From Candidatus Liptonbacteria bacterium (GTDB taxonomy: Bacteria > Patescibacteriota > Minisyncoccia > UBA6257 > 2-01-FULL-56-20), in assembly GCA_016204335.1 (NCBI GenBank), contig JACQKU010000008.1, positions 10,913 through 74,912 on the forward strand: a DNA stretch of 64,000 bases, in the 5' to 3' direction. Positions 38,261 to 59,978 of this stretch are shown piece after piece. The notes beneath the pieces were generated by a model that saw only the letters and a program-made list of their open reading frames with translations, searched no databases and was not told the DNA's origin. The first letter of the stretch is position 1. Every line of letters starts with the position of its first letter. The translations under genes and the position numbers were made by a program.

Positions 38261-38384
38261 ATCCCGTTAGAAACAACAGCTCCATGATTTTTACTACAAT
38301 GTTTCATATTTCAAACAAAAAAGTCGATTCAACTAAAATCGTTGATGTACGGTCGCCCGGGGCGGCCCGCTTCTAATGGGATGA
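38261..38384. repeat. Motif C module 1: ATCCCGTTAGAAACA - 92-nt spacer - TCTAATGGGATG (ATG = GT4 start)
   Basis: 15-nt terminus after the GT10 stop. A degenerate inverted copy supplies the GT4 start codon. Confidence 0.5.
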
Positions 38385-39607: not shown

Positions 39608-39614
39608 CGTTTTC

Positions 39615-39629
39615 TGTTTCTAACGGGAT
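39615..39629. repeat. Motif C copy TGTTTCTAACGGGAT followed by ATG (start of NUDIX gene 39628)
   Basis: Perfect reverse complement of 38261-38275. It lies 7 nt after the GT4 stop. Confidence 0.6.
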
Positions 39630-40092: not shown

Positions 40093-40138
40093 TGACATTA
40101 TGAAAATTCTCAGCTTGGCGCAATAAGATTTATATTCA

Positions 40139-40642
40139 ATGACAACGCTCGTCTTCAAAAGATTTTTTTGTAAAATCGCGTATCCGCTTGCCGCCTGGAT
40201 TCTTTGGCGGGTTAGGCCGGATGCCTCGGCCTCTGCCTGCGCGATCGCGACAAACGGGAAATTGCTTTTAATTCAGCGTTCGTACGGGCCAGGCATGTGG
40301 GATCTTCCCGGAGGGAGAATCGGCAATAAGGAAACACCGGAAGAAACCGTGCGGCGTGAAGTTGAGGAGGAAGTTGGCGTCACTCTTGGGACGGTAAAAC
40401 TGTTCGGTGAGCATTTTTTTCTTCGCGATGATGGCATTAAGCGCGGCGTGGTGCATTGTTTTTACATTGAAGTGCCGAACGAGAATTTTATCCTAAAAAG
40501 CGGGGAAATCGCCGCGGCGAAATGGGTTGCCTTAGATAGCATTCCCGAATTTCATACTCAGTCGGTTGACACCACGCTCAGATTTTTGGACCCTCAAAGG
40601 CCCTGCCCGCCGTCAATTTCCAAGCACATCACGATTTTTTGA
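40139..40642 (+). CDS. NUDIX hydrolase (canonical Nudix box)
   Basis: GGRIGNKETPEETVRREVEEEVGV = GX5EX7REVXEEXGV. Confidence 0.7.
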   Translation: MTTLVFKRFFCKIAYPLAAWILWRVRPDASASACAIATNGKLLLIQRSYGPGMWDLPGGRIGNKETPEETVRREVEEEVGVTLGTVKLFGEHFFLRDDGIKRGVVHCFYIEVPNENFILKSGEIAAAKWVALDSIPEFHTQSVDTTLRFLDPQRPCPPSISKHITIF

Positions 40643-40675: not shown

Positions 40676-41737
40676 CTAAATATAATTTAACTCGTTAAGG
40701 CGTTCAATGACGCCAGTCGAATTGTTTTTTTGTTGTATAGCGAGGACGACCTCGGCTTCCGACACAATTTTTCTTAACGTACCCAAAATTTTTACCGGGT
40801 TTTTGCCCACTGCGGTTTCCGAAGAAAGAATCAGGCCATTCACGCCGTCGAGTACAAGGTTGATTATATCGTTGACTTCGCCTCTTGTAGGTTTGTCTTT
40901 GTGGAGCATGTTTTCAAGGAGGTGAGTAGCCACGAAAATAGGTTTCCTTTCTTTAACGCACTGTTTAGTGATGAGTTTCTGAACAAACGGTATTTTTTCG
41001 TAACCGATTTCCGTTCCGAGATCGTTTCTGTCGATAAGAATAGTGTCGCTTGCCGCGATTAGAGAATCAAGATTGTTAATTGCCCGGCGCGTTTCGATTT
41101 TCGAGGAAATCAGGATATTTTTTTTGCCGATAAATCGCCGTACTTCCTCCACATCTTTCGCGGCGCTGACGTACGACAGGGAAATCTCGGAGATTCCGTA
41201 TGGGAGAGCTTTTTTTATTACCAAACGGTCTGCGTCGGTAAGCATCGTTTTCGGTTCAATCTTTTTTTCGAGTCGGATGTTTTTTGGCACGCTCATTTCG
41301 CCTCCGCGCACTATCACGCACTCCAGCCGCGGGGACGGATCTTTTTTTCGCCCCAATACTTTTAGCACGATCCGGTTGTCGTCTATGGATATTTTTTCGC
41401 CTCTCGGGATGGCGGCGATGAATTCGGGGCGCGTGATCCATAAGGATTTTGATTGCATCGAAGAACCAAACGGTATTATTGAGATATGTTCGCGGCGTTT
41501 CAATATCGCCGTTTTTCCGAAAGGAGCCATCATTCTTGTTTCTTTTCCCTGGGTGTCAATGATGATGGGAATTTTCTTCGAGAGCGCGCGAATGTCCTCG
41601 ATAAGCTTTATCGCGCGTTCAGGGGGGGTGTGGCTAAGATTGATGCGAAGCGCATCGGTTTTTTTCCTTATGAGACCGGAAAGGGTTTTTGCGGAATCGG
41701 ACTTCGGTCCTATTGTGCAAATAATTTTTGTTTTCAT
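40676..41737 (-). CDS. Pyruvate kinase-like protein (barrel and cap domains only; lacks the usual C-terminal domain)
   Basis: MKTKIICTIGPKS...RINLSHT, ISKIETRRA, DRNDLGTEI, VATHLLENM...PTRGEVNDI follow the PK barrel. 353 aa versus about 470 for typical PK. Confidence 0.6.
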   Translation of the reverse strand: MKTKIICTIGPKSDSAKTLSGLIRKKTDALRINLSHTPPERAIKLIEDIRALSKKIPIIIDTQGKETRMMAPFGKTAILKRREHISIIPFGSSMQSKSLWITRPEFIAAIPRGEKISIDDNRIVLKVLGRKKDPSPRLECVIVRGGEMSVPKNIRLEKKIEPKTMLTDADRLVIKKALPYGISEISLSYVSAAKDVEEVRRFIGKKNILISSKIETRRAINNLDSLIAASDTILIDRNDLGTEIGYEKIPFVQKLITKQCVKERKPIFVATHLLENMLHKDKPTRGEVNDIINLVLDGVNGLILSSETAVGKNPVKILGTLRKIVSEAEVVLAIQQKNNSTGVIERLNELNYI

Positions 41738-41752
41738 GGTTATAATTATGCG

Positions 41753-43144
41753 CTATATCAATGGTTTTCCGGAGAGTTTTTTATACTCTTTTATCCCGAG
41801 CGCCTTGAGAATTGTAGGGGCGATTTGAACGGTTTCGACCTGCCCGAGGTTTCCTAAGGGGCCGCCTTCTTTTTTTAATATAATGACGCCTTCGGGAGCA
41901 TGCCCGGCATCGTCGGTCCCGACAGTAGTTCCTTCGGAATACAGCCCTTTATTCCCGATATCGTTATTGGTTCCGTAGCGAAGGTTGTCGAAATACACTA
42001 CTGCGTCAGGGGCTTTATCGCCTTTTTTCCTGTAAATTTTTGAAGTATCGTATACCTTTGTATTCAATTTTTCGCCTTTTACGCCTCTAATTAGCGGAAG
42101 TTCTTTACTAATCCGTCTCAAAATTTTCACCCTGTTTTTTTTGTCGTAAATATAAACATTTGCCTGATATCCTTCAGTGGCTATGACACTCGTTTTATCC
42201 CAGTCTATGGTTTCGTAGTCGAGTCGTTTCGGGCCGTTTGCGTAAAAATCCGCAAATTCTTTTTTTACGGCCAAAAAACCTTTTTCCCGCAGCCAGTCAT
42301 TTAAATTTATCCGGCGAATCATGTGGTCCATTCCATGGTCGGACACCACCATCACCGTTGTTCCGGAATCCATTTTTGAATGTTTCATAAATTTTCCGAA
42401 CTCCCCATCCACGTATTTATAGAAATCCAATACCGCGTTTTTGTAGGGTGAATTTTTGACGTAGCGTTCATGAGTGGGGTCAATATGCGCCCAGAACATA
42501 TGGTGAAGTCGGTCTGTGCCGATAGTCACAAAATCAAAAAGGTCCCAATCCATTTTTTCAAAAAGATAGCGGGCAATTTTGAAATGCTGTTTGGTCATTT
42601 TATAACTTTGCGAGATGAGAAAATCCAAATTCATTTTCTTATATCCCAGAAATCCGGCCACATCAAACATGTAATCTTTGCCGAAAAGAAGTTCTTGGAT
42701 TTTCTTCTTGAAAGAAACCGGATAGACGCTCTTATCGTCAAAGCTTGGAGTCAAAAAATCGGTTACCATTACCCCGTTAATTTTTTTTGCGGGATAGGTG
42801 AGAGGGATATTGAGCGCAATTGTCTTCTTTCCTTTTCTGCTCAGCATATCCCAAAGCAGAGGAGTTTTTATATCGGTAGATGTAACGAGCGAAGGAGTGC
42901 GGTAATGGCGTCCTTGTTTTGCCATATAACTTTGAATACCGGTTTCTCCGGGGTCCCTGCCGCTGTTGATAGAAGTCCAGGCGACGGTTGAAGTCGGCGG
43001 AACGGTGGAGTTCAAGATTCCGTAAGAACCTTCTTCGATAAGACAGGAAAAGTTGGGCAATTGGTTTCTATAACGCCCGAATACCAGTTTAGGGACAAAT
43101 CCATCTATGCCGAAAAGAAATACTTTTTGCTTTTTGGGTTTCAT
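41753..43144 (-). CDS. Alkaline-phosphatase-superfamily type I phosphodiesterase / nucleotide pyrophosphatase (PF01663-like)
   Basis: FLFGIDGFVP...STVPPTSTVAWTSINSGRDPGETG (metal-binding T/S nucleophile region) and MVVSDHGMD. Confidence 0.65.
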   Translation of the reverse strand: MKPKKQKVFLFGIDGFVPKLVFGRYRNQLPNFSCLIEEGSYGILNSTVPPTSTVAWTSINSGRDPGETGIQSYMAKQGRHYRTPSLVTSTDIKTPLLWDMLSRKGKKTIALNIPLTYPAKKINGVMVTDFLTPSFDDKSVYPVSFKKKIQELLFGKDYMFDVAGFLGYKKMNLDFLISQSYKMTKQHFKIARYLFEKMDWDLFDFVTIGTDRLHHMFWAHIDPTHERYVKNSPYKNAVLDFYKYVDGEFGKFMKHSKMDSGTTVMVVSDHGMDHMIRRINLNDWLREKGFLAVKKEFADFYANGPKRLDYETIDWDKTSVIATEGYQANVYIYDKKNRVKILRRISKELPLIRGVKGEKLNTKVYDTSKIYRKKGDKAPDAVVYFDNLRYGTNNDIGNKGLYSEGTTVGTDDAGHAPEGVIILKKEGGPLGNLGQVETVQIAPTILKALGIKEYKKLSGKPLI

Positions 43145-43149
43145 CGCAG

Positions 43150-44289
43150 TTATACGAATAATTTTTTTTCTTTAAGCAGTATCCTTGATATCTCGCGTCT
43201 TAGCATTTCCGCGGGAGGGGCTTTACCAATCGTAAGCATGTTCCGTATGAGCGTACCAGAGGAGTGCACGCGATACTTTTCTCCGTGCGGGCAGGCGTCC
43301 TCGAATGCGGTAGTCTTGCAACGCGTGCAGTAAAAGGCTTTTCCAAAATGGAAAATTTTTATGCCCATTGCGCGGTTATATTTTCCAATCATAAAGGCGT
43401 AATTTTGAAGCGTGTAAAAGTTTCCGACGCCCGTGTGGTCGCGCCCGACGATAAAATGCGTACAGCCGAAATTTTTGCGGATAACGGCGGTTAAAAGAGC
43501 CTCGCGCGGCCCCGCGTAGTAGGCATTGTAGGGAAGAAAGCTCAAGACGGCTTTCCCGCGCGGAAGAATGTGCGCCACAAAATAACGATAAGCTTTTGCC
43601 ACGACCTCATTCCGGAAATCGCCTTTCTTTTTAGAACCGATTAACGGATGCACAAGAATGCCGTCGGTTTTTTTAAGACCTTCCTTCTGGATGTGTTCAT
43701 GCCCAAGATGAGGCACATTCCTGGTATGAAACGCGACAATCTGTTTCCAATGCTTTTTTTGAAAAAGAGTTCTTGTTTCGCGCGGAGTCAGATACGGAAG
43801 TAATGTTCGAAGCGGTTTTCCGATCCAGGTAATATCTCCGCCGATAAGATACGGTTTTGCGCGTTTAAGTTTCGCCACGCCGGGATGCGCGACATCTGTC
43901 GTGCCGAATACTTTTTTTGCGAAAAGCGTTTTGGGAAAAGGATATATTTCTGAAATTTCGAGAAGCCCTATGATTTTTCCGGAAAAGTTCTTAAGAAATA
44001 TCTCCTTTTCTTTGAAAATTTTTTTTCGTTCGTCGGCATCAATATCAAGGATAATCGGGATAGGCCAGAAGACGTTGTTTTTCAGAGACAAATGATTGAG
44101 CACAGACAGGAAATCTTTTTTATTCAAGAATCCACTAAGGGGACTGTATGCTCCCGTTGCGATATTCCACAGTTCAACGATTTTTTCGTGAGCTATCGGA
44201 AGCGACCGAAGTTTTTGCGCCAAAAGCCGTCTCTTTTCTTTTGGAGACGCGATACGATTAATCAGCTTGTTGCCCAGAGGTTTATTCAT
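43150..44289 (-). CDS. sat: Sulfate adenylyltransferase (ATP sulfurylase)
   Basis: AFHTRNVPHLGHEHI (QTRNxxHRAHE-type motif) and IVGRDHTGVG (GRDHAG motif). Confidence 0.85.
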   Translation of the reverse strand: MNKPLGNKLINRIASPKEKRRLLAQKLRSLPIAHEKIVELWNIATGAYSPLSGFLNKKDFLSVLNHLSLKNNVFWPIPIILDIDADERKKIFKEKEIFLKNFSGKIIGLLEISEIYPFPKTLFAKKVFGTTDVAHPGVAKLKRAKPYLIGGDITWIGKPLRTLLPYLTPRETRTLFQKKHWKQIVAFHTRNVPHLGHEHIQKEGLKKTDGILVHPLIGSKKKGDFRNEVVAKAYRYFVAHILPRGKAVLSFLPYNAYYAGPREALLTAVIRKNFGCTHFIVGRDHTGVGNFYTLQNYAFMIGKYNRAMGIKIFHFGKAFYCTRCKTTAFEDACPHGEKYRVHSSGTLIRNMLTIGKAPPAEMLRREISRILLKEKKLFV

Positions 44290-44292
44290 GGA

Positions 44293-44511
44293 TTAAAGAT
44301 ATCCGAGTTTTTTCAGATGCTCGCGGATTTGCGTTTCTTCAGCAAAGAGCGGCTTATCGGTTTTTTCCAAAAGAAGTTCGCGCAAAATAAAGGCGACAAA
44401 AGCGGATACAGACACAAAGCCCGTGCCGTCGATTGTTTTTTCTATCCGGGCGTGAAGCGAACGGGGGATTGAGACAGTCGTGTAATCATTCCGTTTCTTT
44501 TTGATAGCCAT
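44293..44511 (-). CDS. Ribbon-helix-helix (CopG/NikR-like) DNA-binding protein
   Basis: TVSIPRSLHARIEKTI...GFVSVSAFVAFILRELL is an RHH signature. First gene of the sat operon. Confidence 0.6.
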   Translation of the reverse strand: MAIKKKRNDYTTVSIPRSLHARIEKTIDGTGFVSVSAFVAFILRELLLEKTDKPLFAEETQIREHLKKLGYL

Positions 44512-44777
44512 AGTGTAATTATGGGTAATTACAATTTGGTGTCAAGGGGTGGCTGTGGATAAACGTATTGGGTTAACAAAATGCCGATATAAGGCCTGTT
44601 TTATTGCTTATCCAGCCGGATTTTGCTAATATACGGCAATGATAAAGAAAAAATCTTCAAAAAAGCGGGTGCCAGAAAAAGAAGCGGGGAACGCCGACAT
44701 AGAAAAGCGGAAGGAGGGGGAGCGGAAAAAAGTTATGGAACAGTTGCGCGCGCTGGGATATATTTAGGGAACCAATG

Positions 44778-44904
44778 CCAGGCAGTAGAACTGCGACATT
44801 GGCAGTTCGTAATTTCAATGATTCATATCGCGAGAAAGGTCTTTTTTACTTTAGAAACTTGTAACAAGTCAGCCGCAGGCTGAAGTCGCAGTTTCACTGC
44901 CTGG
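44778..44904. repeat. Palindromic element family B copy 2 (CCAGGCAGTAGAACTGCGAC...GTCGCAGTTTCACTGCCTGG)
   Basis: Ends 2 nt before the ATG of the sulfatase-like gene. Confidence 0.5.
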
Positions 44905-44905
44905 T

Positions 44906-46300
44906 ATGCCTTCACAGAAAAGGAGAACAAAGCCCAACGTCATTTTTATTGTCATCGACGGACTGCGCGCCGACCATCTCGGCTCGTTCGGCTACCGCCG
45001 CCCCACGAGCAGATTTTTGGATGCGTTCGCGAAAAACTCGGTTAATTTCCGTTCGCACTTTTCAAACAGTTCTCAATCGGCGCCGGGATTTTTTTCTATT
45101 TTTGCATCGGCATATCCTTTTATGCGGAGCGATTGGACGACGACCAAGGGTCCTTATGAATTTTTAAGTGAAGTTTTTCGAAAAAACGGTTACAAAACTG
45201 CAGGATTCGCCTGTTCTCCTTATATCTCTTCATTCTTCGGCTATGACCGCGGGTTCGACGATTTTTATTATTCCGGATGCCATGATGATTCGGATGCGGT
45301 GAAAAAAACCATAAAGTCGACATTACCCTCGCGGATGTTCGAAATGCTCAAGAAGTTTGTTAAAACCACCACTATCGGAAAAATGATGAATCGTATCAGA
45401 TTCCGTTTTTTAATGCAGCCCGCTTACAGCAATTCGGAAGCAATCAATGAAATCGTGGAAAATCATCTTTCTCGTAGCGATTGCAATGACAGGCCTCTTT
45501 TCGCGTGGATCCACTACTTGGATGCGCATGTTCCTTTTAGAAGCAAAAAAAATGATATTCGGGCGGTGGGAGGACGCTTTGGCGCGCGGCGCGCAAATTT
45601 TTTGGACCGTAAAGTATTCAGCTTTACACTCCTCAATCCTTTTGTCGATGAAGAACGGATGACCGTTCAAGAACTCAAAGACCTTGAGCTATGTTATGAC
45701 GCGCAAATTTACCGCGCCGATCGCAATCTCGAAAAATTGTTTTCAATGCTTTCGGAGAACGGTATCTCCCGGGAGAATTCCGTAATCGCGATTACCGCCG
45801 ACCACGGAGAGGGATTCGGGGAACACTTCGGCATAGGGCATACTATGCGTCTTTATGATGAGTTGGTGCATGTTCCTTTCTTTTTATCAGTACCGGGAGG
45901 AAAACCGCGCGAAGTTTATGATCTCACCAATCATATCGATATTGTGCCGACACTCGCCGCATCCGCGGGAATTTCTTTGCGAAGCCGTTTCATCAAAGGC
46001 AAAAATGTGCTTAAGGGTTCGGATACAAAGTATGTCTTTAGCGAAGTCGCGCCGAACCTCGGCGGCATGCTCTCTAAAATAGATTTTTCAAGAAGCGTGT
46101 TTTCCGTCCGCGGAAAGGAATGGAAATATATCAAGGATTATGCAAGGGAAAGAGAGGAACTTTACCATTTATCGGAAGATCCTGACGAGTTGAAAGATCT
46201 GTCGCAAACGGAAGTAGACGTTAAAAACAAACTTTGGAATTTGTTGAGAGTACATATCAAGAGGAAAACGAAAGCGGTGCCGTATCTTAAGGATGTCTAG
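44906..46300 (+). CDS. Sulfatase-like hydrolase/transferase (alkaline phosphatase superfamily); canonical C/S-x-P-x-R sulfatase motif not evident
   Basis: NVIFIVIDGLRADHLGSFGY (metal site), TADHGEGFGEHF and overall sulfatase-domain layout, but NSSQSAPG in place of CxPxR. Confidence 0.65.
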   Translation: MPSQKRRTKPNVIFIVIDGLRADHLGSFGYRRPTSRFLDAFAKNSVNFRSHFSNSSQSAPGFFSIFASAYPFMRSDWTTTKGPYEFLSEVFRKNGYKTAGFACSPYISSFFGYDRGFDDFYYSGCHDDSDAVKKTIKSTLPSRMFEMLKKFVKTTTIGKMMNRIRFRFLMQPAYSNSEAINEIVENHLSRSDCNDRPLFAWIHYLDAHVPFRSKKNDIRAVGGRFGARRANFLDRKVFSFTLLNPFVDEERMTVQELKDLELCYDAQIYRADRNLEKLFSMLSENGISRENSVIAITADHGEGFGEHFGIGHTMRLYDELVHVPFFLSVPGGKPREVYDLTNHIDIVPTLAASAGISLRSRFIKGKNVLKGSDTKYVFSEVAPNLGGMLSKIDFSRSVFSVRGKEWKYIKDYAREREELYHLSEDPDELKDLSQTEVDVKNKLWNLLRVHIKRKTKAVPYLKDV

Positions 46301-46333: not shown

Positions 46334-47149
46334 TCAATCTTTCCCTTTCCAAAAAAATGTATTGTTAAGATCGACTATTTTGTGAACGTATCCCATTTTT
46401 TCTAATTTTTGCGTAATGAAGGGTGTCGGGTCTTCTATGAGAAGTTTTATATCGGGGTTGCGCCGTATTGTTTCCATTGCGCCCCGAAATACGGGGTCAA
46501 CTACGCCCTCAACGTCAATCTTTATAAAGTCAGCGCGCTGGGGGCTTATATCGTCTATCCGGACCGCATCGACACGATACTCGCGTATTGTCTTATCGTC
46601 ATCTTTGCCGAAATTCGATCCTATTTTATGTTCATAATCTTTTCTTGGATCTTCCATACTTGACCATGTCCACGCATCTCCGACAACATACAGAGTTTTC
46701 TTCTCTTGAGAATCAGACGCGGCGGCTTGCTTTGAAGACACAACATTCTCGAAGCCATTTTCTTTAATGTTTTTGGTAAGAAGCGCGAAGCTGTTTGGTT
46801 CCGGCTCTATTGCAACTACCTTTCCCGTTTCACCCACCAATTTCGCCGCAATGAGCGTGAACCATCCTATTGATGCTCCGATATCAATGAATACCCCACC
46901 CTCTTGCAAGTTCTTAAAAAGTAATTGAGTGGACTCCGGTTCTTTGGCACCGAATTTTTCCGCCAATGATTCACGTGGGTCAAGCCAAATTTTTAGTCCG
47001 TGCTTGTGCACAAACGATTCTTTTTTGCCTTTCAAAAATTTCTCGAAACGAACATTTAAATTTCGTATCCATGTAATTTTACTAAGACCCAAGCCGCGCA
47101 CTATATGGCGGCGGAAAAATATATAAATTTTGATTAAGATTTTTTTCAT
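46334..47149 (-). CDS. FkbM-family methyltransferase
   Basis: VFIDIGASIGWFTLIAAKLVGETGKVVAIEPEPNSFALLTKN. Confidence 0.7.
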   Translation of the reverse strand: MKKILIKIYIFFRRHIVRGLGLSKITWIRNLNVRFEKFLKGKKESFVHKHGLKIWLDPRESLAEKFGAKEPESTQLLFKNLQEGGVFIDIGASIGWFTLIAAKLVGETGKVVAIEPEPNSFALLTKNIKENGFENVVSSKQAAASDSQEKKTLYVVGDAWTWSSMEDPRKDYEHKIGSNFGKDDDKTIREYRVDAVRIDDISPQRADFIKIDVEGVVDPVFRGAMETIRRNPDIKLLIEDPTPFITQKLEKMGYVHKIVDLNNTFFWKGKD

Positions 47150-47245
47150 TTTTTATCGCGCATTCGGTTGTCCCTTGTCCATTTTTTATTCCATTTATTT
47201 TGTTATATTGGTGATGATAATGTGCAAGCGTTATGCGCCCATTAA

Positions 47246-48355
47246 TTATGAATTCGCGTAAAACTCTTTTATTTTTTCAATAACCTCATCTTTTTGTTCT
47301 TTGGTGATATGCGATGCTGACGGAAGTTGGAGCCCGTTCGCGCCGTAGTGGTCAGCCCACTTGAAATCACCCTTGTCGTTGTAAATCGGCTGGGCATGCA
47401 TGGGGATAAAGAATGTCCTTGTTTCTATCCCGTTCTTCGCAAGATATTCCATTAGCTCGTCGCGCCGCGGCGCCAAGAGTCCGAACATCCAAAATACGCA
47501 AAAAGTGTTTAGTGGTTCGGGAAAGAACCTTAATCCGGGGATATTTTTTAGGCCGTTCAGGTAATATTTCGCATTCGCCCTTCTTTTCAGAACCAATTCA
47601 TCAAGCCGCTTTAGTTGCGCAAGACCAAGTGCGGCACCTAACGCGGACATTCTAAGATTCCAGGCGATCGTTTTATGCCAGAAGTGTTTTTCATCATCAA
47701 AGTCATAACCTCGTATGTGGCGGAGCTTGTCGGTTAATTCGTAGTTATTCGTAAGGATCATACCTCCTTCTCCTGTGGTCATTATTTTGTTGGCATAAAA
47801 AGAAAAACAACTTGCTTCGCCGAATGTTCCCATAAGTTTTCCTTTGTATTTTGCGCCGTGTGCTTCGGCTGTGTCTTCGATAACAAGTAGATTATGTTTT
47901 TTAGCGATATCCATTATTTTGGACATGTCGCATGGTTCGCCGTATGCATGCACAGGCATGATGGCGCGCGTTTTTACAGTTATTTTTTCCTCAATTTTAC
48001 TTGGGTCGATGTTGAAACTTTTTTCGCTGGAGTCCACGAAAACAGGTGTCGCGCCGCAGTGGCTTACGGCTCCAGCGGTTGCCACCATTGTAAAACTTGG
48101 CATAATCACCTCATCGCCAGGAACAATTCCAAGCGCTTTCAGAGTCAAAAAAAGCGCGGAGCCGCCGGAATTCACGGCCACTGCATACTTCATCCCGAAT
48201 TTTTCCGCAAATGCGTCTTCCAGTTTTCCAACCGGCGAGGCTATCGAAGAGATTTCTTTGTTTTTTATGGCATCAACCACATAATTTATCTCAAGCTCTG
48301 ATATGTCCGGTTCGCAGACGCGGATTTTCACCGGATATTTATTGACACTGGGCAT
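47246..48355 (-). CDS. DegT/DnrJ/EryC1/StrS-family PLP-dependent sugar aminotransferase (GDP-perosamine synthase-like by context)
   Basis: VIEDTAEAHGAKYKGKLMGTFGEASCFSFYANKIMTTGEGGMI with the Schiff-base Lys region. Confidence 0.85.
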   Translation of the reverse strand: MPSVNKYPVKIRVCEPDISELEINYVVDAIKNKEISSIASPVGKLEDAFAEKFGMKYAVAVNSGGSALFLTLKALGIVPGDEVIMPSFTMVATAGAVSHCGATPVFVDSSEKSFNIDPSKIEEKITVKTRAIMPVHAYGEPCDMSKIMDIAKKHNLLVIEDTAEAHGAKYKGKLMGTFGEASCFSFYANKIMTTGEGGMILTNNYELTDKLRHIRGYDFDDEKHFWHKTIAWNLRMSALGAALGLAQLKRLDELVLKRRANAKYYLNGLKNIPGLRFFPEPLNTFCVFWMFGLLAPRRDELMEYLAKNGIETRTFFIPMHAQPIYNDKGDFKWADHYGANGLQLPSASHITKEQKDEVIEKIKEFYANS

Positions 48356-48369
48356 ATAAGTTTGTTATC

Positions 48370-49338
48370 TTATTTAGATTTTTTTTGCAAGTCGGCCAAA
48401 TCTGCTTCCACCATTAGCTTCACAAGTTCTTTGAATTTTATTTTTGGACTAAAACCAAATGCGTTTTGCGCTCTTGAGATATCGCCTACGAGTGCCGTGT
48501 TTTGCGCCGGCCTTAAAAATTTCGGATTTATTTTGACATATTTTTGAGAGTCAAGTCCGACGGTGGCAAAGGCCTCGTCTACGAATTCTTGCACCGAGTG
48601 CGCTTCTCCGGTGCAAATGATATAGTCATCCGCTTTTGGCTGTTGCATGATGTTCCACGCCGCCTCCATGTATTCTTCGGCGTAGCCCCAGTCGATTTTA
48701 GCCGAGAGGTCACCCAATTCAAGAACATCCTGGAGGCCGAGCGAAATTCGAGCGACGGACTTGGTTATCTTTCTTGTGACGTATTCGTCTGGTCTCCGCG
48801 GCGATTCGTGATTGTAAAAAATGGCAGTGGCAACGAACATGTCATACGCTTCGCGATAAAAGCGGCTTACGACGTAGGCCAGGACTTTAGCGCATGCATA
48901 GGGGCTCTGCGGCCGAAACGGAGTGTTCTCGTTCTGCGGATGTTCCGTTGCCTTGCCGAAGACATTCGAAGTGATGGGCTGGAAGAATTTTATGTCCGGA
49001 TTTACTTGTTTTACGATTTCAAGAATTTTTCCGACAGCCACGCCGGTAACATTATATTGATATTCCACGATGTCAAAACTCCAGCCAGCGTGGTCCTGGT
49101 CGGCTTCGTTGTAGATTTCTTCCGGATTAACTTCGCGGATTACCTTCCAGAGCGAGTTCGTGTCCAAAAGGTCGCCGCGATGAAGTATCAAAGAGTCCTT
49201 TATGTGTTCAATGTTTTTGGTGTTGCCGGTCGCGGTGCGCCGGATAAACCCGTGGACTTCGTATCCTTTTTCAAGAAGTATTTCGGCAAGATATGACCCG
49301 TCTTGCCCCGTGATGCCTAAAATGAGAGCTTTTTTCAT
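48370..49338 (-). CDS. GDP-mannose 4,6-dehydratase paralog
   Basis: [40 protein letters not shown]; about 60% similar in motif pattern to gmd at 12608. Confidence 0.8.
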   Translation of the reverse strand: MKKALILGITGQDGSYLAEILLEKGYEVHGFIRRTATGNTKNIEHIKDSLILHRGDLLDTNSLWKVIREVNPEEIYNEADQDHAGWSFDIVEYQYNVTGVAVGKILEIVKQVNPDIKFFQPITSNVFGKATEHPQNENTPFRPQSPYACAKVLAYVVSRFYREAYDMFVATAIFYNHESPRRPDEYVTRKITKSVARISLGLQDVLELGDLSAKIDWGYAEEYMEAAWNIMQQPKADDYIICTGEAHSVQEFVDEAFATVGLDSQKYVKINPKFLRPAQNTALVGDISRAQNAFGFSPKIKFKELVKLMVEADLADLQKKSK

Positions 49339-49411
49339 GCTTGTCAATTTTACCATCTTATCAACTCTTGAGAAAATATGAAAGAGGAGATGGATTGTCC
49401 TGCCCCGTTAT

Positions 49412-49921
49412 TCATTTCCTCCGGCGCCGATTATGAAAATGCCGCGCGATAAATCGGCGATGGATGGTAATCATCTTTCGCGGCAGGCGCGATGCGTCCC
49501 AAAATTTCATGTCCGCGGTTTCCCGAACCGTTTTCCTTGGCTCGCAAAGAACGTACACCGAGAGCGGTCGTCCGTAGGGATGTTCGCCTTCGCGCCATTT
49601 ATCGGCATCGAGGACTTCGAGATACTTCACATCGAAATCCAACTCGCGTTTTGCGACGCGCGAGCAGGTTTCCTGGATCGTTTCATTCCAGATATTATAG
49701 CCGCCAGGAATGTGCCAATAGCCGCGCGCGAATTTCCCCTGATAGGGCGTGAGAAGTATCTCGGCGCCATGCGTGCGTTTGCGGAGGATCACGAGTTCCG
49801 GCGCCCACATTGAAACCGCGCCATGGAGCGGTTCGAACGCTTCATCGGGAATAAAAAAATTTTGCTCGGGTATTTTTTTGAGGAGCCGCGCCAGTGTTTG
49901 CGCTTCTTTTTTCGTCATCAT
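49412..49921 (-). CDS. Divergent NUDIX-like hydrolase
   Basis: WHIPGGYNIWNETIQETCSRVAKRELD is a degenerate Nudix box. Confidence 0.4.
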   Translation of the reverse strand: MMTKKEAQTLARLLKKIPEQNFFIPDEAFEPLHGAVSMWAPELVILRKRTHGAEILLTPYQGKFARGYWHIPGGYNIWNETIQETCSRVAKRELDFDVKYLEVLDADKWREGEHPYGRPLSVYVLCEPRKTVRETADMKFWDASRLPRKMITIHRRFIARHFHNRRRRK

Positions 49922-50162
49922 GTCGTTCTCATCATAACCGATTTACCGAAGAATGAAAAAAAGGATGTGGTTCGCTCTTCCGTGAATCGAAAACTCCTCG
50001 CTAAATTGTGAGCAATTTCTTCTCCGTTTCCATCGCGGTGATTTGGAGGTGCCTTCTTTTAAAAATGGAAGAGGGGAACGCGGCGATGTCGTCGCGTCCC
50101 CCTCGGTGCTTCCCCGCGCGTCCTCCTGGTGCCGGGGTTTTCTGACCATATCGGCCGGTGCT

Positions 50163-50885
50163 CTAGTCGCCGAACGGGTAAGGTATGATTCCCTCCTCCT
50201 CGAGCTGGTCGCGGAGGCCGTCCGTGACCAGGCGGAAGATCGCGGCCCGCTTCGCGGCGAGGAGCTTCCCGAGCTGGGTGCGGATGCACACGCCCGACTC
50301 GGAATCGACCCAGTCGAGCGAGTAGGCGATGTCCCGGAACACCGTCCTCGGTGCCTGGTACGTTGCCTCAGGGTCGTCGAGGAAGTGTTTGTAGTCGACG
50401 ACCGGCAGATCCGCATAGTGCTGACCGGACCTTGCGAAAAGATCGCCGTCCAAGTTCACGATCCGGTCGGCGTCCATCAGCGCGATGAGCACCGGCGAGT
50501 CGTTCGAAGAGTTCTTGCCGTCGTGGCCGAGGACTGCGGCCACGATAGCATCCACTTCGGGGCCGTAGTAGCCGAAGACCGGCTCCGGGACGTGCCCATA
50601 CGCGGATGGGCGAGTCTCGGTCATAAGCCAGCTCTTGACGAGCCGGCTCGTTTCGTCAGTGGGCACTTCGCGCCGGCCAACGCCGAGCTTCTTCTGTATC
50701 ACCTTGTCGGCGTTGTGGCAGAGCCCGGCTACACCGGCGAGCTCAGCGGTCTGCTTGTCGGTCTCGTTGAGGCCGATCTGGTAGGCGATCTGGCCTACCC
50801 GCGCGGCGTGCACCCAATCGTGGTGCCCGACGAGACCGACTTCCTCGTGGCTCTTGTGGACTGCAGCGAACAAATCGGGGAACAT
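50163..50885 (-). CDS. HD-domain metal-dependent phosphohydrolase-like protein, paralog 1 (GC-rich xenolog)
   Basis: Shares ordered blocks with the next two genes (LAGVAGLCHNADKV / DADRIVNL / IIPYPFGD). Own SD (GGAGGGG) and terminator hairpin at about 50085-50115. GC content far above the window average. Confidence 0.6.
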   Translation of the reverse strand: MFPDLFAAVHKSHEEVGLVGHHDWVHAARVGQIAYQIGLNETDKQTAELAGVAGLCHNADKVIQKKLGVGRREVPTDETSRLVKSWLMTETRPSAYGHVPEPVFGYYGPEVDAIVAAVLGHDGKNSSNDSPVLIALMDADRIVNLDGDLFARSGQHYADLPVVDYKHFLDDPEATYQAPRTVFRDIAYSLDWVDSESGVCIRTQLGKLLAAKRAAIFRLVTDGLRDQLEEEGIIPYPFGD

Positions 50886-51119
50886 CTCCCAGATTCTCAC
50901 TTGCCCCTCCCTTCGGGTTAGAGTCGTTGCAAGAGCAGTTCGTCGGCAGAGATACACTCCGCCGTCAAACCGCCGGTTTTCGGTAAGGACGATACACATA
51001 CTTCCTTTCTTCAGTCGTATTCACTTTTCAAGGGCTGATATAGCGAAAGGGGCCAGGTCCGCCGAACTGCTTTTAGTGAAACATAAATCAAAAGATATGT
51101 CAAATCACCGCTCCCCCCG

Positions 51120-51821
51120 TTAATTCTTTTTTCGCGAAAACGGATACGGCCGAAGGCGGCTTTCCTTCAGCTGGTTTTCTATGTCCTGCATGAATATTTT
51201 GAGAAATGCGAACCGCTTCGCGCCGATTTTTTTTGCCTTGGGGAGCCGGAGCCATTTTTTCCACTCAAGCGAGTATGAGATGTCTTTTCCGACTGACTCG
51301 GGATGACGATAACTCGATGAGGGATGGTGGAACAGATGAATATAGTCAAGAACTGGAAGGTGTTCGAGCTCCTTCGCGCTCCGAAGGCACAGGAGCGCGC
51401 CGACATTCGCGAGACGATCCGCGTCTTTGAGCGCTACGGTTACTTTGCTGTCGCGCGGATCGTTTCGTTTGCGATGCTCCATTACTGCTTCGATCACCAA
51501 TTGTTTGTCGTTATGGTTGAGTGTGGTGTATTGTAAATATTGGATAAGTTTTTTCCGGACAAGAGTATCAAGGGTATGCTTTTTTCGGAAATGTTCCGGA
51601 ACGAGACCTCGTTCGATAAGATGATCCGTATTGTGGCATATTCCGGCAACCCACGCGAGTTTGGCTGTTCGCGCGTCGTCTGCGATGCGAACGCTGTAAT
51701 TCGCGACCATCAGCGCGTGCTCAAAGTCATGCCCGCTCTCGCTTGCCCTCACTTTTTCGTGATCGCGAATGACCATAGTAAGAAGTTCCGTGTATTTTTT
51801 GATGAGTGTTTCGATGGACAT
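51120..51821 (-). CDS. HD-domain phosphohydrolase-like protein, paralog 2
   Basis: RDHEKVR..GHDFEHAL...LAWVAGICHNTDHL...ALKDADRLANVGA...RPYPF. Confidence 0.6.
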   Translation of the reverse strand: MSIETLIKKYTELLTMVIRDHEKVRASESGHDFEHALMVANYSVRIADDARTAKLAWVAGICHNTDHLIERGLVPEHFRKKHTLDTLVRKKLIQYLQYTTLNHNDKQLVIEAVMEHRKRNDPRDSKVTVALKDADRLANVGALLCLRSAKELEHLPVLDYIHLFHHPSSSYRHPESVGKDISYSLEWKKWLRLPKAKKIGAKRFAFLKIFMQDIENQLKESRLRPYPFSRKKN

Positions 51822-51829
51822 GATTTATA

Positions 51830-52528
51830 TTATAGGAGGTGCTTGTATGTTGCGGGAAGCGGATACATCCCGATTGATTTCAATTGGCGCATAATATCGT
51901 TGAGCGCTTGGCGCATAAACTCGGCGCCCGGTTTGGAAATATGTTTTGCTTTCAGAAGCCGAATTTTCACCGATGGCTTCTCGGTCCATTCCAAAACATA
52001 GGTCAAATCTTCCACTGCTGTTTTTTCTTTGCCGAACGAATTTTTCAAGCGCATTGGCGAAACAAAATCGAAGAGCGACCTATTGTGATAATATTGCCCA
52101 ATGCGAAGGAGTACAATCGCGCCGAAATCCGCGATTCTGTCCGCGTCTTTCAGCGTTACGGTTACCCTATCATCGTTCGGATCATTTTTTTTCGTGTGAT
52201 TCATCACTGCCCGGAAAACGATTTCTTTTTCTGAAGCCGTGAGGGGAGTTTTTTGAAGATGCGCCTTAAGTATTCGCGGGGTGTTTCTGTTTCCGAACAA
52301 GCGGTCAGTGTTGTGGAGAATTGCCGCCAGCCAGGCAAGCCGCGCGGTTTTTTTATCCGGAGCGATTTTGAGCGCGGTGTTTGCCACGCGGAACGTATGC
52401 CCGATGTCGTGATGATGCCCCACTTTTTTCACTCGCGTTTTATGATCGCGCGATACTCGAGCAAGAAGCAGATGAAATTCTTTTCCCAAAGAAGGAAGCA
52501 GATAGGTAAAATCTTTCGAATTTCTCAT
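51830..52528 (-). CDS. HD-domain phosphohydrolase-like protein, paralog 3
   Basis: RDHKTRV..GHHHDIGHTF...LAWLAAILHNTDRL...TLKDADRIADFGA...MYPLP. The start codon is embedded in motif C (52528-52542). Confidence 0.6.
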   Translation of the reverse strand: MRNSKDFTYLLPSLGKEFHLLLARVSRDHKTRVKKVGHHHDIGHTFRVANTALKIAPDKKTARLAWLAAILHNTDRLFGNRNTPRILKAHLQKTPLTASEKEIVFRAVMNHTKKNDPNDDRVTVTLKDADRIADFGAIVLLRIGQYYHNRSLFDFVSPMRLKNSFGKEKTAVEDLTYVLEWTEKPSVKIRLLKAKHISKPGAEFMRQALNDIMRQLKSIGMYPLPATYKHLL

Positions 52529-52647
52529 CCCGTTAGAGACAGGTCGCCTCGGGCGACCGTAATTCAGCGGTTTTTACTGCAATCGCTTTTGGGACGGCAA
52601 GATAAGACATAGTTTAGAAATCATAGTATTGTTGTCTCTAACGGGAT
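52528..52647. repeat. Motif C module 2: ATCCCGTTAGAGACA - spacer with GGTCGCCTCGGGCGACC hairpin - TGTCTCTAACGGGAT
   Basis: 15-nt perfect inverted termini bracket the C-MT2 stop / HD3 start junction. Confidence 0.6.
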
Positions 52648-53855
52648 TTCTTCCCGATAATTCTGAATCGAGGAATCGGGACGATGAATTTTCCTCCGTT
52701 TTTGAGCCAGATTTGCTCGCGCTTCACGAATGTATCCGTGAACGCCCACGGCAAAATCAAAAAATAGTCGGGATTTTTTTTGCGCGCTTGTTCCTCGGAA
52801 ACGATAGGAATGTTTGTGCCAACGGTGAACTTGCCCCATTTTACTTTGTCTTTGTCGGCGGCGGCTGTGATTAACTTTGACGTGAGTCCATAGTATTGGA
52901 GAATGGTGTTGCCTTTTGTTGACGCGCCGTAGGCATAAACTGTTTTGCCTTTTTCAACTTCGCGTTTGATGAACTCAACGCACTTCCTTTTGTTTTCTTC
53001 GAGTCGCTTTGCGAAAGCGGGGTAATCGAATTTCGGCTCCGGATATTTGACGCTTCCCTTGTTTAGTTTTCGCGCGAACAAACGATAACTTCCTCCGTTT
53101 ATGGAATTTTCTTCGACTTTGAATATCTCGAGGCCGTTTTTCTCAAACAGGTACATCAGCGACGGATAAGAATAAAATTCAAGATGTTCGTGGCAAATGT
53201 TGCCGACGTCGTTTTTTTCGATCATGGGTTTCAGCGTCATCAGTTGCGCGATGAATACGCCGTCGTCGGCAAGGGCTTGAGCGGCGTCGCCGACGAACTG
53301 CCCCGGATTTTCCATATCGTAAAACATTCCGATGGCGGTGATGATTTTCGCTTTTGGAATCCCGAGTTTTTTATACGCCGCGTACGACCAGAAATCGTGA
53401 ATGATTTTGTCGGCGTGTTTTTTAAGCTTCGCTTGGAGATTGTTCGCGGGTTCGCAGGCGGCACGGATATAGTTCGGAGAGAAAAATTTCAAGAGCGTGC
53501 CGTCGTTCGCGCCGATATCCAAAACAACATCGTCTTTCTTGAGCTCCGCGAGTTTTTGGGAAACGCGGGCAATTTCTTTCAAATCGCTCACGATAACCGG
53601 ATTGACGGCGGACTGATACCAATAATGCCGTGAGTACATTATTTCTTGCGGGGCGGTATGTTTCAGTTGAAGCAAGCCGCACTTTGAATTTGAGCACAGA
53701 ACCAATTCCAGCGGCGCAAGTATCGGCTTTTTAGATTGTTTGGTTACGAAATCGGAAACCGCCAACTTCCCCAAAGAAAGAATTTTTTTGAGTTTTTTGC
53801 CTCCGCAGAGGCGGCAGGTTTTTCTTGTGATGTAAGATAGTTTTATTGCCTTCAT
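52638..53855 (-). CDS. NDP-hexose C-methyltransferase (TylC3-like), paralog 2
   Basis: CRLCGGKKLKKILSLGKLAVSDF Zn-ribbon, VLDIGANDGTLL, and C-terminal TVYAYGASTKGNTILQYY domain. Confidence 0.75.
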   Translation of the reverse strand: MKAIKLSYITRKTCRLCGGKKLKKILSLGKLAVSDFVTKQSKKPILAPLELVLCSNSKCGLLQLKHTAPQEIMYSRHYWYQSAVNPVIVSDLKEIARVSQKLAELKKDDVVLDIGANDGTLLKFFSPNYIRAACEPANNLQAKLKKHADKIIHDFWSYAAYKKLGIPKAKIITAIGMFYDMENPGQFVGDAAQALADDGVFIAQLMTLKPMIEKNDVGNICHEHLEFYSYPSLMYLFEKNGLEIFKVEENSINGGSYRLFARKLNKGSVKYPEPKFDYPAFAKRLEENKRKCVEFIKREVEKGKTVYAYGASTKGNTILQYYGLTSKLITAAADKDKVKWGKFTVGTNIPIVSEEQARKKNPDYFLILPWAFTDTFVKREQIWLKNGGKFIVPIPRFRIIGKKSR

Positions 53856-53932
53856 TTTGATCGTAAGATACTGTATCATATTATTAATCTGCCGTTAAGC
53901 CAAGCGAGCTTTTCACGACACATTTTGCTTAA

Positions 53933-58883: not shown

Positions 58884-58952
58884 CCGAAGATATGTCGTGC
58901 TTTTATCTGCGCGCTTTTGACATCAAGCCGTTCTTTTTTTATACTGCTTGGT

Positions 58953-59972
58953 ATGATTGTTGTTCGCGCTCCTCTTCGCATCAGCTTTGTCGGCGGCGGC
59001 ACGGACCTACCGGATTTTTACCGGCGTTCGCCCGGCCGCGTGATTTCGACCGCGATCGATAAATTTGTTTATGTAGTCATCAATCGGACGCCGCTCATCG
59101 ACAAAGTGTCGGCGCGGTACTCAATTGCCGAAACAGTCAATCATCCGAGCGAACTCAAGCATACCCGCATTAAGGCCGCGCTTCTTGACCTCGGGATTCA
59201 TAAAAATATCGAAATCGCGTCGTTCGGAACACTGCCTGCGAAAACGGGCCTTGGCTCTTCGTCGTCCTTTTCGGTCGCTCTTATGAGAGGACTTCACGGT
59301 TTTCTCGGCAGGAAAATTGATAAACGGCAAACTGCCGAAGCCGCGAGCCGTCTTGAAATCGAGCTTGTCGGCGAACCGATCGGCAAACAAGACCAGTATG
59401 CGGCATCGTTCGGCGGCTTTAATGTTTTGCAGTTCAACCCAGATGAATCGGTGGACGTTGACCCGGTATTGCTTCACTACAAAACACAGCTCGGCCTTGA
59501 GGACCACTTGCTGCTTTTTTTCACCGGAATTACCCGCAATGCTTCGGAAGTCCTTGCGGAGCAGAAAACGAATATAGGGAAAAAAGTGGACACCCTGAAA
59601 GAAATGGCCGAATCGGTTCATGAATTTAAGGAGAAACTTCTCAACGGGAATTTCAGGGGGATGGCGGAGATGCTTCACGCAAGATGGCTCAAAAAGAAGA
59701 CCCTTGCGTCGAATGTTTCGAATTCGACGATAGACGAATTATATGAAGCCGGCATTTCTTCAGGCGCGTGGGGCGGCAAAGTGCTCGGGGCAGGCGGAGA
59801 CGGCTGTATTATGTTTATAGCGCCGCCCGAAAAAAAGAACGATATCAGGCATGCGCTCAAAAAGATTGTCAGTGAAAAGAAAATCGCCGATTTTCAGGAA
59901 ATACCCGTAAAATTCGTACAAGCGGGCGCGGAAATTCTTTATAACGGCGACTACGTTCATAATTTCGGATAA
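58953..59972 (+). CDS. GHMP-family sugar kinase, D-glycero-D-manno-heptose 7-phosphate kinase (HddA)-like, paralog 1
   Basis: MIVVRAPLRISFVGGGTDLPDFY N-terminus and GHMP ATP-binding loop GTLPAKTGLGSSSSF. Confidence 0.7.
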   Translation: MIVVRAPLRISFVGGGTDLPDFYRRSPGRVISTAIDKFVYVVINRTPLIDKVSARYSIAETVNHPSELKHTRIKAALLDLGIHKNIEIASFGTLPAKTGLGSSSSFSVALMRGLHGFLGRKIDKRQTAEAASRLEIELVGEPIGKQDQYAASFGGFNVLQFNPDESVDVDPVLLHYKTQLGLEDHLLLFFTGITRNASEVLAEQKTNIGKKVDTLKEMAESVHEFKEKLLNGNFRGMAEMLHARWLKKKTLASNVSNSTIDELYEAGISSGAWGGKVLGAGGDGCIMFIAPPEKKNDIRHALKKIVSEKKIADFQEIPVKFVQAGAEILYNGDYVHNFG

Positions 59973-59978
59973 AATCAA

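Follow-up and report, generated by a model that had tools for sequence, protein, structure and literature searches.

A recurrent gene cassette of CPR bacteria predicted to make a 3-C-methyl-perosamine-like sugar donor, with a divergent GMD paralog and HD-domain proteins

We analyzed a 64,000-nucleotide stretch of DNA (the window) from a metagenome-assembled genome of Candidatus Liptonbacteria, an ultra-small groundwater bacterium of the Candidate Phyla Radiation (CPR, or Patescibacteria), and we focused on eight genes on its minus strand at positions 46334-53879. We predict that these genes form a cassette, recurrent in the CPR, that converts a GDP-linked 4-keto-hexose to a 3-C-methyl-perosamine-like 4-amino sugar donor for a surface glycan, and we give this reading a probability of roughly 60%. 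An earlier note, made from the DNA sequence alone, had described the eight genes as an operon for a modified GDP-sugar pathway. The open reading frames (ORFs) fill this interval exactly, and the domains that were named are found by Pfam and NCBIfam (Table 1). The more general proposal, that the cluster tailors nucleotide sugars of the GDP-6-deoxyhexose type, also holds up: the aminotransferase is closest to GDP-perosamine synthase, the C-methyltransferase (CMT) is closest to 3-C-methyltransferases, and the combination recurs in other genomes. The stretch with these genes is matched on four groundwater contigs in Logan, and NCBI gives the name Candidatus Liptonbacteria bacterium to proteins identical to those encoded here.

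What we observed are the domain identities, the nearest relatives of known structure, the residue changes at the active sites, and the conserved gene neighborhood. From these, we propose a substrate, a product, an order of steps, and roles for the HD and Nudix proteins. In the first step, GDP-mannose would be converted to a 4-keto sugar, either by the canonical GMD that is encoded elsewhere in the window, which is the likely source, or by the cassette's own GMD paralog (GMD*). The TylC3-type CMT would then methylate C-3, beside the keto group, and the Per-type aminotransferase would turn the 4-keto group into a 4-amino group. The FkbM-family protein would O-methylate the sugar, probably after its transfer, and a divergent GT4 glycosyltransferase and the glycosyltransferases that follow it would install the sugar. 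The HD proteins would be conserved accessory components rather than a sugar-tailoring step.

Table 1. Genes of the cassette (first eight rows) and related genes elsewhere in the window
Feature	Position	Strand	Evidence
C-methyltransferase (CMT), TylC3/TcaB9 type	52638-53879	-	Pfam Methyltransf_13/23/14
HD-A	51830-52528	-	PF01966, 27.3 bits (cutoff 22)
HD-B	51120-51821	-	PF01966, 29.7 bits (cutoff 22)
HD-C, third HD copy	50163-50900 (revised start; ORF 50163-50999)	-	family HMM, 211 bits; zero Pfam matches
Divergent Nudix-fold protein	49412-49921	-	PF00293, 25.9 bits (cutoff 21.1)
N-type GMD paralog (GMD*)	48370-49356	-	PF16363, 347 bits
DegT aminotransferase (pyridoxal phosphate-dependent), Per/RfbE type (predicted)	47246-48355	-	PF01041, 378 bits
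FkbM-family methyltransferase (S-adenosylmethionine-dependent)	46334-47149	-	PF05050, 62.9 bits (cutoff 22.7); TIGR01444, 90.7 bits (cutoff 37.7)
Canonical E-type GMD	12554-13633	+	TIGR01472, 505.6 bits (cutoff 415)
Fcl-like gene, directly after canonical GMD	13635-14567		263 bits (cutoff 500)
Second C-methyltransferase	35820-37142	+	Methyltransf_13/23/14; 167 bits to cassette CMT
Gmm-like Nudix	39628-40092	+	NF011963, 53.8 bits

Sugar-modifying enzymes of the cassette

The best solved relative of the DegT-family aminotransferase is the perosamine synthetase of Caulobacter (3bn1/3dr4), at 304 bits over the full length (residues 10-362), and all other solved aminotransferases score 251 bits or less. 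The lysine that binds pyridoxal phosphate (PLP) is kept, as FSFYANKIMTTGEGG aligns with FSFFGNKIITTGEGG of the solved perosamine synthetase. The protein therefore groups with GDP-perosamine synthase and not with UDP- or dTDP-sugar aminotransferases, which was the comparison proposed by the earlier note. Its top match in NCBIfam is LegC (319 bits, as compared to a cutoff of 420), which is likewise a GDP-sugar 4-aminotransferase, and none of the Per-specific models in NCBIfam matched it. We predict that it is a GDP-perosamine-synthase-like (Per/RfbE type) aminotransferase, as this is the group to which it is closest.

The CMT has a zinc ribbon (PF08421), an S-adenosylmethionine-binding domain (PF13489), and a C-terminal domain (PF08484). 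Its best solved relatives are D-mycarose 3-C-methyltransferase (4rv9, MtmC type; 152 bits), TcaB9 (3ndi; 104 bits), and 5t64. These nearest solved proteins are sugar 3-C-methyltransferases, which bears out the label of TylC3-like C-methyltransferase. The cassette protein shares the three-domain architecture of the TylC3/EryBIII/MtmC and TcaB9 enzymes, which methylate beside a 4-keto group. It differs from them in context: the characterized C-3 methyltransferases belong to antibiotic pathways and use dTDP-sugars, whereas the cassette CMT is found with GDP-sugar enzymes in a surface-glycan island. Among the loci of the survey described below (designated by L and a number), orthologs of the CMT are present in L011 (760 bits), L016 (677 bits), and L114 (74% identity).

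Both family models identify the FkbM protein clearly (Table 1), and it is probably a sugar O-methyltransferase. Its score against PF05575, the model for RfbT of Vibrio cholerae, is 21.4 bits, which is below the threshold. (RfbT O-methylates perosamine in V. cholerae of the Ogawa serotype.) A search of solved structures with the FkbM protein gave no informative relative.

A GMD paralog with asparagine at the position of the catalytic glutamate

GMD* matches 11 GMD sequences of known structure along its full length (276-303 bits), and it scores 362 bits on the equivalog model TIGR01472, under the cutoff of 415 bits. Its active-site segment is QPITSNVFG, while the solved wild-type GMDs all have Q-A-[ST]-[ST]-S-E, so the catalytic glutamate is replaced by asparagine. 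In one deposit of human GMD (6gpk), this position is glutamine, and in the wild type (6gpj) it is glutamate; 6gpk is presumably the E157Q variant that was made to block turnover. In RmlB (dTDP-glucose 4,6-dehydratase), the homologous glutamate abstracts the C5 proton (PMC9415975). In human GMDS, Glu157 and Tyr179 change protonation along the reaction, according to a passage of PMC8640046 that cites Pfeiffer et al. GMD* does keep the NADP-binding GxxGxxG motif, the catalytic threonine, the Tyr-x3-Lys motif (SPYACAK), and the GDP-binding segments. Other changes are specific to its subclade (YNEADQDH versus YNLGAQSHV, and AK[IL]D[WF]G versus AKRDWG).

The N-type GMD was found only in the window and in L016, L057, L114, and L115, and it always adjoins genes for a CMT and a Per-like aminotransferase. 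All five of these subclade members have asparagine at the catalytic site. The window and L114 keep an E-type GMD, with the usual glutamate, alongside the N-type, as L016 and L115 probably do too. In the window, the two GMDs are 49% identical, and the canonical one forms with the adjacent Fcl-like gene the genome's ordinary GDP-6-deoxyhexose pair (12554-14567). As a canonical first GMD is present, the cassette gene was rightly termed a second GMD. The recurrence of the N-type beside the CMT and Per-like genes, together with the retention of the canonical GMD, argues that GMD* is a conserved specialized paralog and not a decayed copy.

The earlier note had taken GMD plus DegT to be the two-step route to GDP-perosamine. 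The DegT half of this claim stands. The GMD half does not, given the asparagine and the score below the equivalog cutoff: GDP-perosamine synthesis cannot be assumed from GMD* because its catalytic glutamate is missing. Since this dehydration glutamate is absent while the NADP site and the Thr/Tyr/Lys residues are kept, GMD* would either still dehydrate, by means of a relocated base, or be a redox enzyme whose reaction has changed.

The second of these options leads to an alternative for the whole cassette, in which GMD* has a new function, either as a C-4 oxidase that keeps the 6-hydroxyl or as a 4-ketoreductase or epimerase that acts on the C-methylated intermediate. The product would then not be a perosamine derivative in the strict sense. 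The change from TSE to TSN, the further subclade-specific changes, the intact cofactor site, the glutamine at the equivalent position in 6gpk, and the co-occurrence of a canonical GMD are all consistent with a new function. It is also conceivable, if speculative, that the free hydroxyl is used by the sulfate-activation and sulfatase-like genes, which adjoin the cassette in L016 and L114 as well as in the window. Still, the acidic residues of YNEADQDH could supply a relocated base, and a non-dehydrating oxidase must exchange NADPH, which is not typical of GMDs. We consider a new function for GMD* to be possible but doubtful.

HD-domain proteins with an altered metal site

A search of the Protein Data Bank (PDB) with the single sequence of HD-B found zero solved relatives, and a family profile was required: a profile of 41 sequences matches the YedJ/YpgQ group with E = 2e-11 to 2e-5. 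The AlphaFold2 model of HD-B (pLDDT 96.3) gives the same placement. The top 16 Foldseek matches to this model are all of the YpgQ/YedJ type, with TM scores of 0.57-0.77 at 15-19% identity, and the best are 5dqw/5dqv (YpgQ), 2pjq, 2qgs, 3dto, and 3gw7 (YedJ). YpgQ is a mononuclear manganese (d)NTP diphosphatase whose metal ligands are H29, H58, D59, and D124 (PMC8177086). PenF, which has a YpgQ-like fold, is an Ara-AMP 5'-nucleotidase (PMC11592144).

The counterparts of H25, H29, H58, D124, and R136 of YpgQ are invariant or nearly so across the HD family. The position of D59, the aspartate of the HD dyad, is asparagine in all three copies in the window (LHNTD in HD-A and CHNTD in HD-B). In 165 of 184 representatives of the family, the dyad aspartate is replaced by asparagine or serine and a conserved aspartate lies two residues further on (H-[N/S]-x-D). 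The family thus departs from the H...HD...D metal motif in one ligand: the first histidine, the dyad histidine, and the final aspartate are invariant, and the dyad aspartate is replaced. Other polar residues (H116, N120, D124, D66, and D133) are invariant or almost so. In a search of 1.84 billion representatives, the family comprised 204 clusters at E <= 1e-30 and 358 clusters at E <= 1e-10. All of the named sources are CPR lineages, except for one bin that is labeled Gammaproteobacteria (L027).

Compared to the YpgQ/YedJ/PenF group, then, the HD family has the same fold, a profile match, and most of the key residues. It differs in the dyad aspartate, in being nearly confined to the CPR, and in being tied to GMD, CMT, and Per rather than to an RNase Y-type context. 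Most plausibly, the HD proteins are hydrolases of a guanine nucleotide or a GDP-sugar species that is linked to the pathway. We hold this prediction loosely because the altered metal site leaves room for other chemistry or for pure binding.

One such possibility is that the HD proteins are not phosphohydrolases but are instead oxygenases (like MIOX, PhnZ, and TmpB), or else non-catalytic subunits or regulators that bind a nucleotide or a GDP-sugar. The family-wide N/S in the dyad, the set of other invariant or nearly invariant residues, and the varying copy number (from one to three) would fit this. However, the nearest folds are all YpgQ/YedJ-type hydrolases, and the arginine and histidine that contact phosphate in YpgQ are conserved. 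HD diiron oxygenases (MIOX/PhnZ/TmpB) have a six-ligand signature, H..HD..H..H..D (PMC8177086), which the family lacks because the dyad aspartate is absent and there is only one conserved histidine (H116) between the dyad and the DADR motif. We therefore ruled out chemistry of the PhnZ/MIOX type on the ligand pattern and the nearest folds, and we think it quite unlikely that the HD proteins are something other than hydrolases.

Conservation of the cassette in other CPR genomes

We searched genomes and metagenomes for loci by means of peptide patterns derived from the HD proteins. Grouping at 90% identity of the HD proteins (below which loci were counted as distinct) left 74 groups. The 41 loci with at least 8 kb of flanking sequence were used for counts, and neighbors were counted if they were within 10 kb of the HD gene. 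A GMD is near the HD gene in 23 of the 41 loci (at a median distance of 1.1 kb), a C-methyltransferase in 19 (1.0 kb), and a Per-like aminotransferase in 18 (1.6 kb). At least one of these three genes is present in 33 loci, and all three are present in 8. FkbM genes are near the HD gene in 11 loci. The glycosyltransferase clusters of the same islands lie at a median of 4-7 kb from the HD gene.

The combination of genes that makes up the cassette recurs in L016, L114, L115, and L057. L016 has, on one strand, genes for a CMT, a PD-(D/E)XK insert, a Gmm-like Nudix, an HD protein, an N-type GMD, and Per; around these are two divergent FkbM genes, a pyruvate-kinase barrel, an adenylylsulfate (APS) kinase, a GT10, and a GT4. 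The order in L114 is CMT, a truncated HD-B, Mem_trans, HD-C, N-type GMD, and Per. In L115 (Peribacter), DegT and HD-C are found, with N-type GMD, CMT, and GT2 on the opposite strand. L057 carries the equivalent parts. The loci that are nearest by the identity of HD-B (L011 and L036, 85%) have only CMT, HD-A, and HD-B at the equivalent place. The number of HD copies varies from one to three, and each version of the cassette that we saw has at least one intact HD gene.

The insert in L016 (L016:8900-9310) is a gene of the PD-(D/E)XK nuclease family (PF13366) that lies between the CMT and Nudix genes of an otherwise intact cassette. Mem_trans genes, of the auxin-efflux-carrier family, follow HD-B in L011 (L011:10813-11736) and L114 (L114:8929-9834); in the window, there is just a gap of 219 bp between HD-B and HD-C.

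These data bear on one alternative, an ordinary GDP-perosamine route. In that case, GMD* would be a normal 4,6-dehydratase, Per would form GDP-perosamine, the methyltransferases would decorate this sugar, and the HD and Nudix proteins would be housekeeping hydrolases that happen to be nearby. It is true that GMD* matches the solved GMDs at about 300 bits, with its NADP site, Thr/Tyr/Lys residues, and GDP-binding segments kept; that the nearest solved relative of Per is a GDP-perosamine synthase; and that some HD members, and the Nudix family, are found among housekeeping genes. But all five members of the GMD* subclade have asparagine for glutamate, with a canonical GMD retained alongside, and in most loci the HD gene is a median of about 1 kb from a GMD or CMT gene, much nearer than the glycosyltransferases of the same island. 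The retention of an intact HD gene in every cassette version also argues against chance proximity. We consider the ordinary route unlikely, and we favor a cassette that makes a 3-C-methyl-perosamine-like donor.

A variant arrangement was seen in 12 of the 41 loci, in which a gene for a protein of 127-134 amino acids, with no Pfam family, lies between an E-type GMD and the HD gene. Examples are L009:7450-7833, L013:7416-7799, and L019:9465-9851, along with their relatives, and an aldo-keto reductase (AKR) gene replaces Per in these loci. The short protein has a motif that looks cupin-like, which would fit a sugar epimerase or ketoisomerase. We asked if it could be the counterpart of the cassette Nudix, and this was ruled out (BLASTP E = 0.03). 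Also, loci from Nealsonbacteria (L005, L006, and L023; for example, L005:14095-16104) encode a short-chain dehydrogenase/reductase (SDR) of 669 amino acids, of the epimerase/dehydratase type, that contains an intein (PF14890).

Nudix genes in and near the cassette

The Nudix protein of the cassette is divergent. Its AlphaFold2 model (pLDDT 92.9) has Nudix matches in Foldseek down to E = 8e-8, with Gmm in fifth place, in the company of generic Nudix domains and even of some that are non-catalytic. Its Nudix box reads G-YNIWN-E-TIQETCS-R-V-A-K-R-E-L-D-F, which deviates from the consensus GX5EX7REUXEEXGU: two of the three glutamates of REUXEE are absent throughout the family (21 aligned sequences, all from CPR). 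The arginine and the last glutamate are kept, as they are in Gmm of E. coli (GGRVQKDETLEAAFERLTMAELGL). The similarity to GDP-mannose mannosyl hydrolase is weak (22.9 bits on NF011963, as compared to a cutoff of 146, and E = 0.046 for PDB 1rya). In short, the protein shares with Gmm (of the Gmm/NudD/WbdQ group) the pattern of lost glutamates, and Gmm is among its top structural matches, but it is far under the NF011963 cutoff, and the clear Gmm-like gene of the window is the one on the plus strand (Table 1). That gene is an ortholog (178 bits) of the in-cassette Nudix of L016, which is directly upstream of HD-GMD*-Per there, and another ortholog is near the cassette in L057.

Relatives of the cassette Nudix were found in three settings (one with cell-wall genes, one within a glycan island, and one where GMD-CMT follows downstream), and no HD gene is near them in L111-L113. 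Conversely, any Nudix match (E <= 1e-3) near the HD gene was found in only 7 of the 41 loci. The trio of HD, Nudix, and CMT, whose co-occurrence the earlier note had proposed to profile, is not a conserved unit, because this Nudix family travels without HD and Nudix genes are so seldom near HD genes. It is the HD proteins with CMT, GMD, and Per that are a conserved association.

Transcription units and the history of the HD copies

On the ORF calls, the gaps between the eight genes are 109, 8, 120, 241, 55, 14, and 96 bp. However, HD-C most likely starts at the GTG at 50900 (giving a protein of 245 amino acids) and not at the ATG at 50999, because its homologs start with M(K)RIWE and because a ribosome-binding site, GGGAGGGG, precedes this GTG. 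(These homologs, at up to 65% identity, form a subfamily of their own.) With the revised start, the gap between HD-B and HD-C is 219 bp instead of 120 bp; the gap on the other side of HD-C is 241 bp. There are zero terminator-like sites in the minus-strand intergenic regions, and the overall number of such sites is not above the expectation from shuffling. A promoter-like site, whose signal is not strong, lies immediately upstream of the Nudix gene (49959-49931). A single transcript for the eight genes is possible, and two or three units would fit equally well, given the gaps of up to 241 bp and the unusual GC content of HD-C.

This GC content is 0.63 (0.80 at third codon positions), as compared to 0.42-0.49 for the neighboring genes, with an intermediate value of 0.53 for the Nudix gene. 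Between the window and L114, identity is only 54% for HD-C, as compared to 72-76% for CMT, GMD*, and Per. The low identity together with the composition suggests that HD-C arose by replacement with a foreign copy. We had considered HD-C to be a unique foreign insertion, but this was revised, as its subfamily is also found beside the N-type GMD in L114 and L115. HD genes that are GC-richer (0.53-0.56 versus about 0.45), if less extreme than in the window, were seen at L114:10001-10702, L115:10001-10675, and L016:10004-10711; repeated transfer or a gene-specific bias could account for these.

HD-A and HD-B are 38-39% identical, HD-C and HD-A are 32% identical, and an ortholog of HD-A is present in L011. 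The three HD genes thus do not represent a tandem triplication: HD-A and HD-B are an old duplication that is common to the window and L011, and HD-C is a GC-rich divergent copy from a separate subfamily.

The surrounding glycan island

The cassette is embedded in a large glycan island. The divergent GT4 gene and further glycosyltransferases are to its right, and to its left are a sulfatase-like gene, ATP sulfurylase, a phosphodiesterase, and a truncated pyruvate-kinase barrel. In several loci, genes related to sulfate are neighbors of the cassette (window 40676-46300; L016:2834-4447; L114:1895-6553; L011:1151-4469). The recurrent set comprises ATP sulfurylase, APS kinase, or PAPS-reductase-like/CysN-like genes, along with sulfatase-family and type I phosphodiesterase genes. 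The pyruvate kinase consists of the barrel only (353 amino acids) and scores 263 bits on TIGR01064, whose cutoff is 306. Judging from these genes, the glycan may be sulfated, and the truncated kinase may have an unusual role.

Further to the right is a GDP-heptose-like module (58917-63001), with two HddA-like GHMP kinases, a GmhA-like SIS isomerase, a nucleotidyltransferase (for a sugar-1-phosphate), and, on the opposite strand, a HAD phosphatase. All of its members score well under the equivalog cutoffs. As this module is 5-9 kb away, the substrate of the cassette might be GDP-D-glycero-D-manno-heptose, in which case the product would be a modified 6-deoxyheptose. But GMD* scores about 300 bits against GMDs and just 84 bits against GDP-heptose 4,6-dehydratase (7us5), and the SIS and GHMP-kinase genes are not recurrent neighbors of HD, GMD, or CMT in other loci. 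A heptose substrate is very unlikely. We had also considered that an HD protein might stand in for GmhB, the phosphatase of the heptose pathway, and we dropped this idea because of the same lack of recurrent neighbors.

A module on the plus strand (33058-40642) includes an Fcl-like SDR (33058-34062), two more SDRs (one of just 263 amino acids), the second CMT, a GT10 fucosyltransferase-like gene, a GT4, the Gmm-like Nudix, and a MutT-like Nudix. Because of this second CMT module, the genome may make two different C-methylated GDP-6-deoxy sugars. The island also encodes, at 29710-32154, a YfhO-family membrane protein of 814 amino acids.

Evidence against the proposed pathway

Several observations weigh against a cassette for a 3-C-methyl-perosamine-like sugar. 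The change from glutamate to asparagine implies that GMD* may not produce the 4-keto-6-deoxy intermediate, every solved relative of the CMT uses dTDP-sugars, and the loss of a metal-ligand aspartate raises the possibility that the HD proteins have no hydrolase activity. The gaps and the GC anomaly around HD-C speak against one simple operon. In other loci, the HD gene and the sugar genes frequently differ in strand (of the 23 loci with a GMD, 10 have the nearest one on the strand of the HD gene). In 8 of the 41 loci, no GMD, CMT, or Per is within 10 kb, and some of these HD genes are among housekeeping genes (L007 and L008, for example). Finally, our survey began from the HD proteins, and one locus (L113) has a GMD/CMT/Per cassette without HD.

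A more specific proposal would combine the two unusual components: GMD* would no longer be a 4,6-dehydratase, and it would have co-evolved in the CPR with dedicated H-[N/S]-x-D HD enzymes that act on a GDP-sugar or guanine nucleotide and are needed for flux. GMD* might then be a non-dehydrating GDP-hexose 4-oxidase whose product enters C-methylation and transamination, which may lead to a 4-amino-3-C-methyl hexose with its 6-hydroxyl. We find this combination doubtful, verging on unlikely.

Comparison with known systems

The GDP-perosamine pathway, as in V. cholerae O1, E. coli O157, and Caulobacter, also has a GMD-family gene directly upstream of a Per-type aminotransferase. The cassette differs in that its GMD has asparagine for glutamate, in that a CMT and one to three HD genes are integral to it, and in that the unit lacks ManB and an N-acyltransferase. 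A further parallel is between the Nudix gene of the cassette and wbdQ of E. coli O157, which we take to be a Nudix/Gmm gene. The order of this O-antigen cluster is gmd-fcl-wbdQ-manC-manB-rfbE (per) (PMC3158064).

For virenose in Coxiella burnetii, an in silico proposal has GMD, a TylCIII-like methyltransferase, and GMER acting by way of GDP-4-keto-6-deoxymannose (PMC3539893). Here too, a GMD is paired with a TylC3-type C-methyltransferase. Unlike the pathway that we propose, the virenose route ends in reduction or epimerization, not in transamination, and it has no HD protein, Nudix protein, or N-type GMD. The CPR loci with AKR genes (L009, L013, and L019) are more virenose-like than the window is.

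The predicted product also resembles N-acyl-kansosamine, a component of the lipooligosaccharide of Mycobacterium kansasii, which is a 4-amino-4,6-dideoxy-3-C-methyl-2-O-methyl-mannose. The 4-amino, 3-C-methyl, and O-methyl decorations are those that the cassette predicts. The organism and the configuration differ, and the kansosamine pathway is not known to have been defined biochemically.

The earlier note had stated that no characterized pathway combines these parts. This stands for two of the parts, the N-type GMD and the HD proteins, and it does not stand for the combination of gmd, rfbE, and wbdQ, which is found in E. coli O157, or for GMD with a CMT, which is found in the virenose proposal. 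In the literature, we found nothing on a GDP-sugar C-methyltransferase that has been characterized together with perosamine, on kansosamine biosynthesis, or on perosamine in CPR. Nor did we find a description of the association of H-[N/S]-x-D HD proteins with GMD, CMT, and Per across the CPR, or of a conserved GMD subclade without the dehydration glutamate. Overall, the type of pathway is known and the class of product has chemical precedent; among the parts, only the N-type GMD and the HD family are unprecedented.

Significance

The CPR bacteria are ultra-small, mostly uncultured, and host-dependent, and their surface chemistry is almost unknown. That the cassette is kept across several CPR classes suggests that the surfaces of these bacteria repeatedly carry a rare branched amino sugar. 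GMD* is a natural counterpart of the substitution that enzymologists introduce to stop dehydration, and the HD family has lost the aspartate for which its superfamily is named, yet it is retained beside GDP-sugar genes. Solving the function of GMD* or of the HD proteins would widen the reaction space of two well-studied superfamilies, and it would improve the annotation of a few hundred clusters that are described as "hypothetical" or "HD domain-containing."

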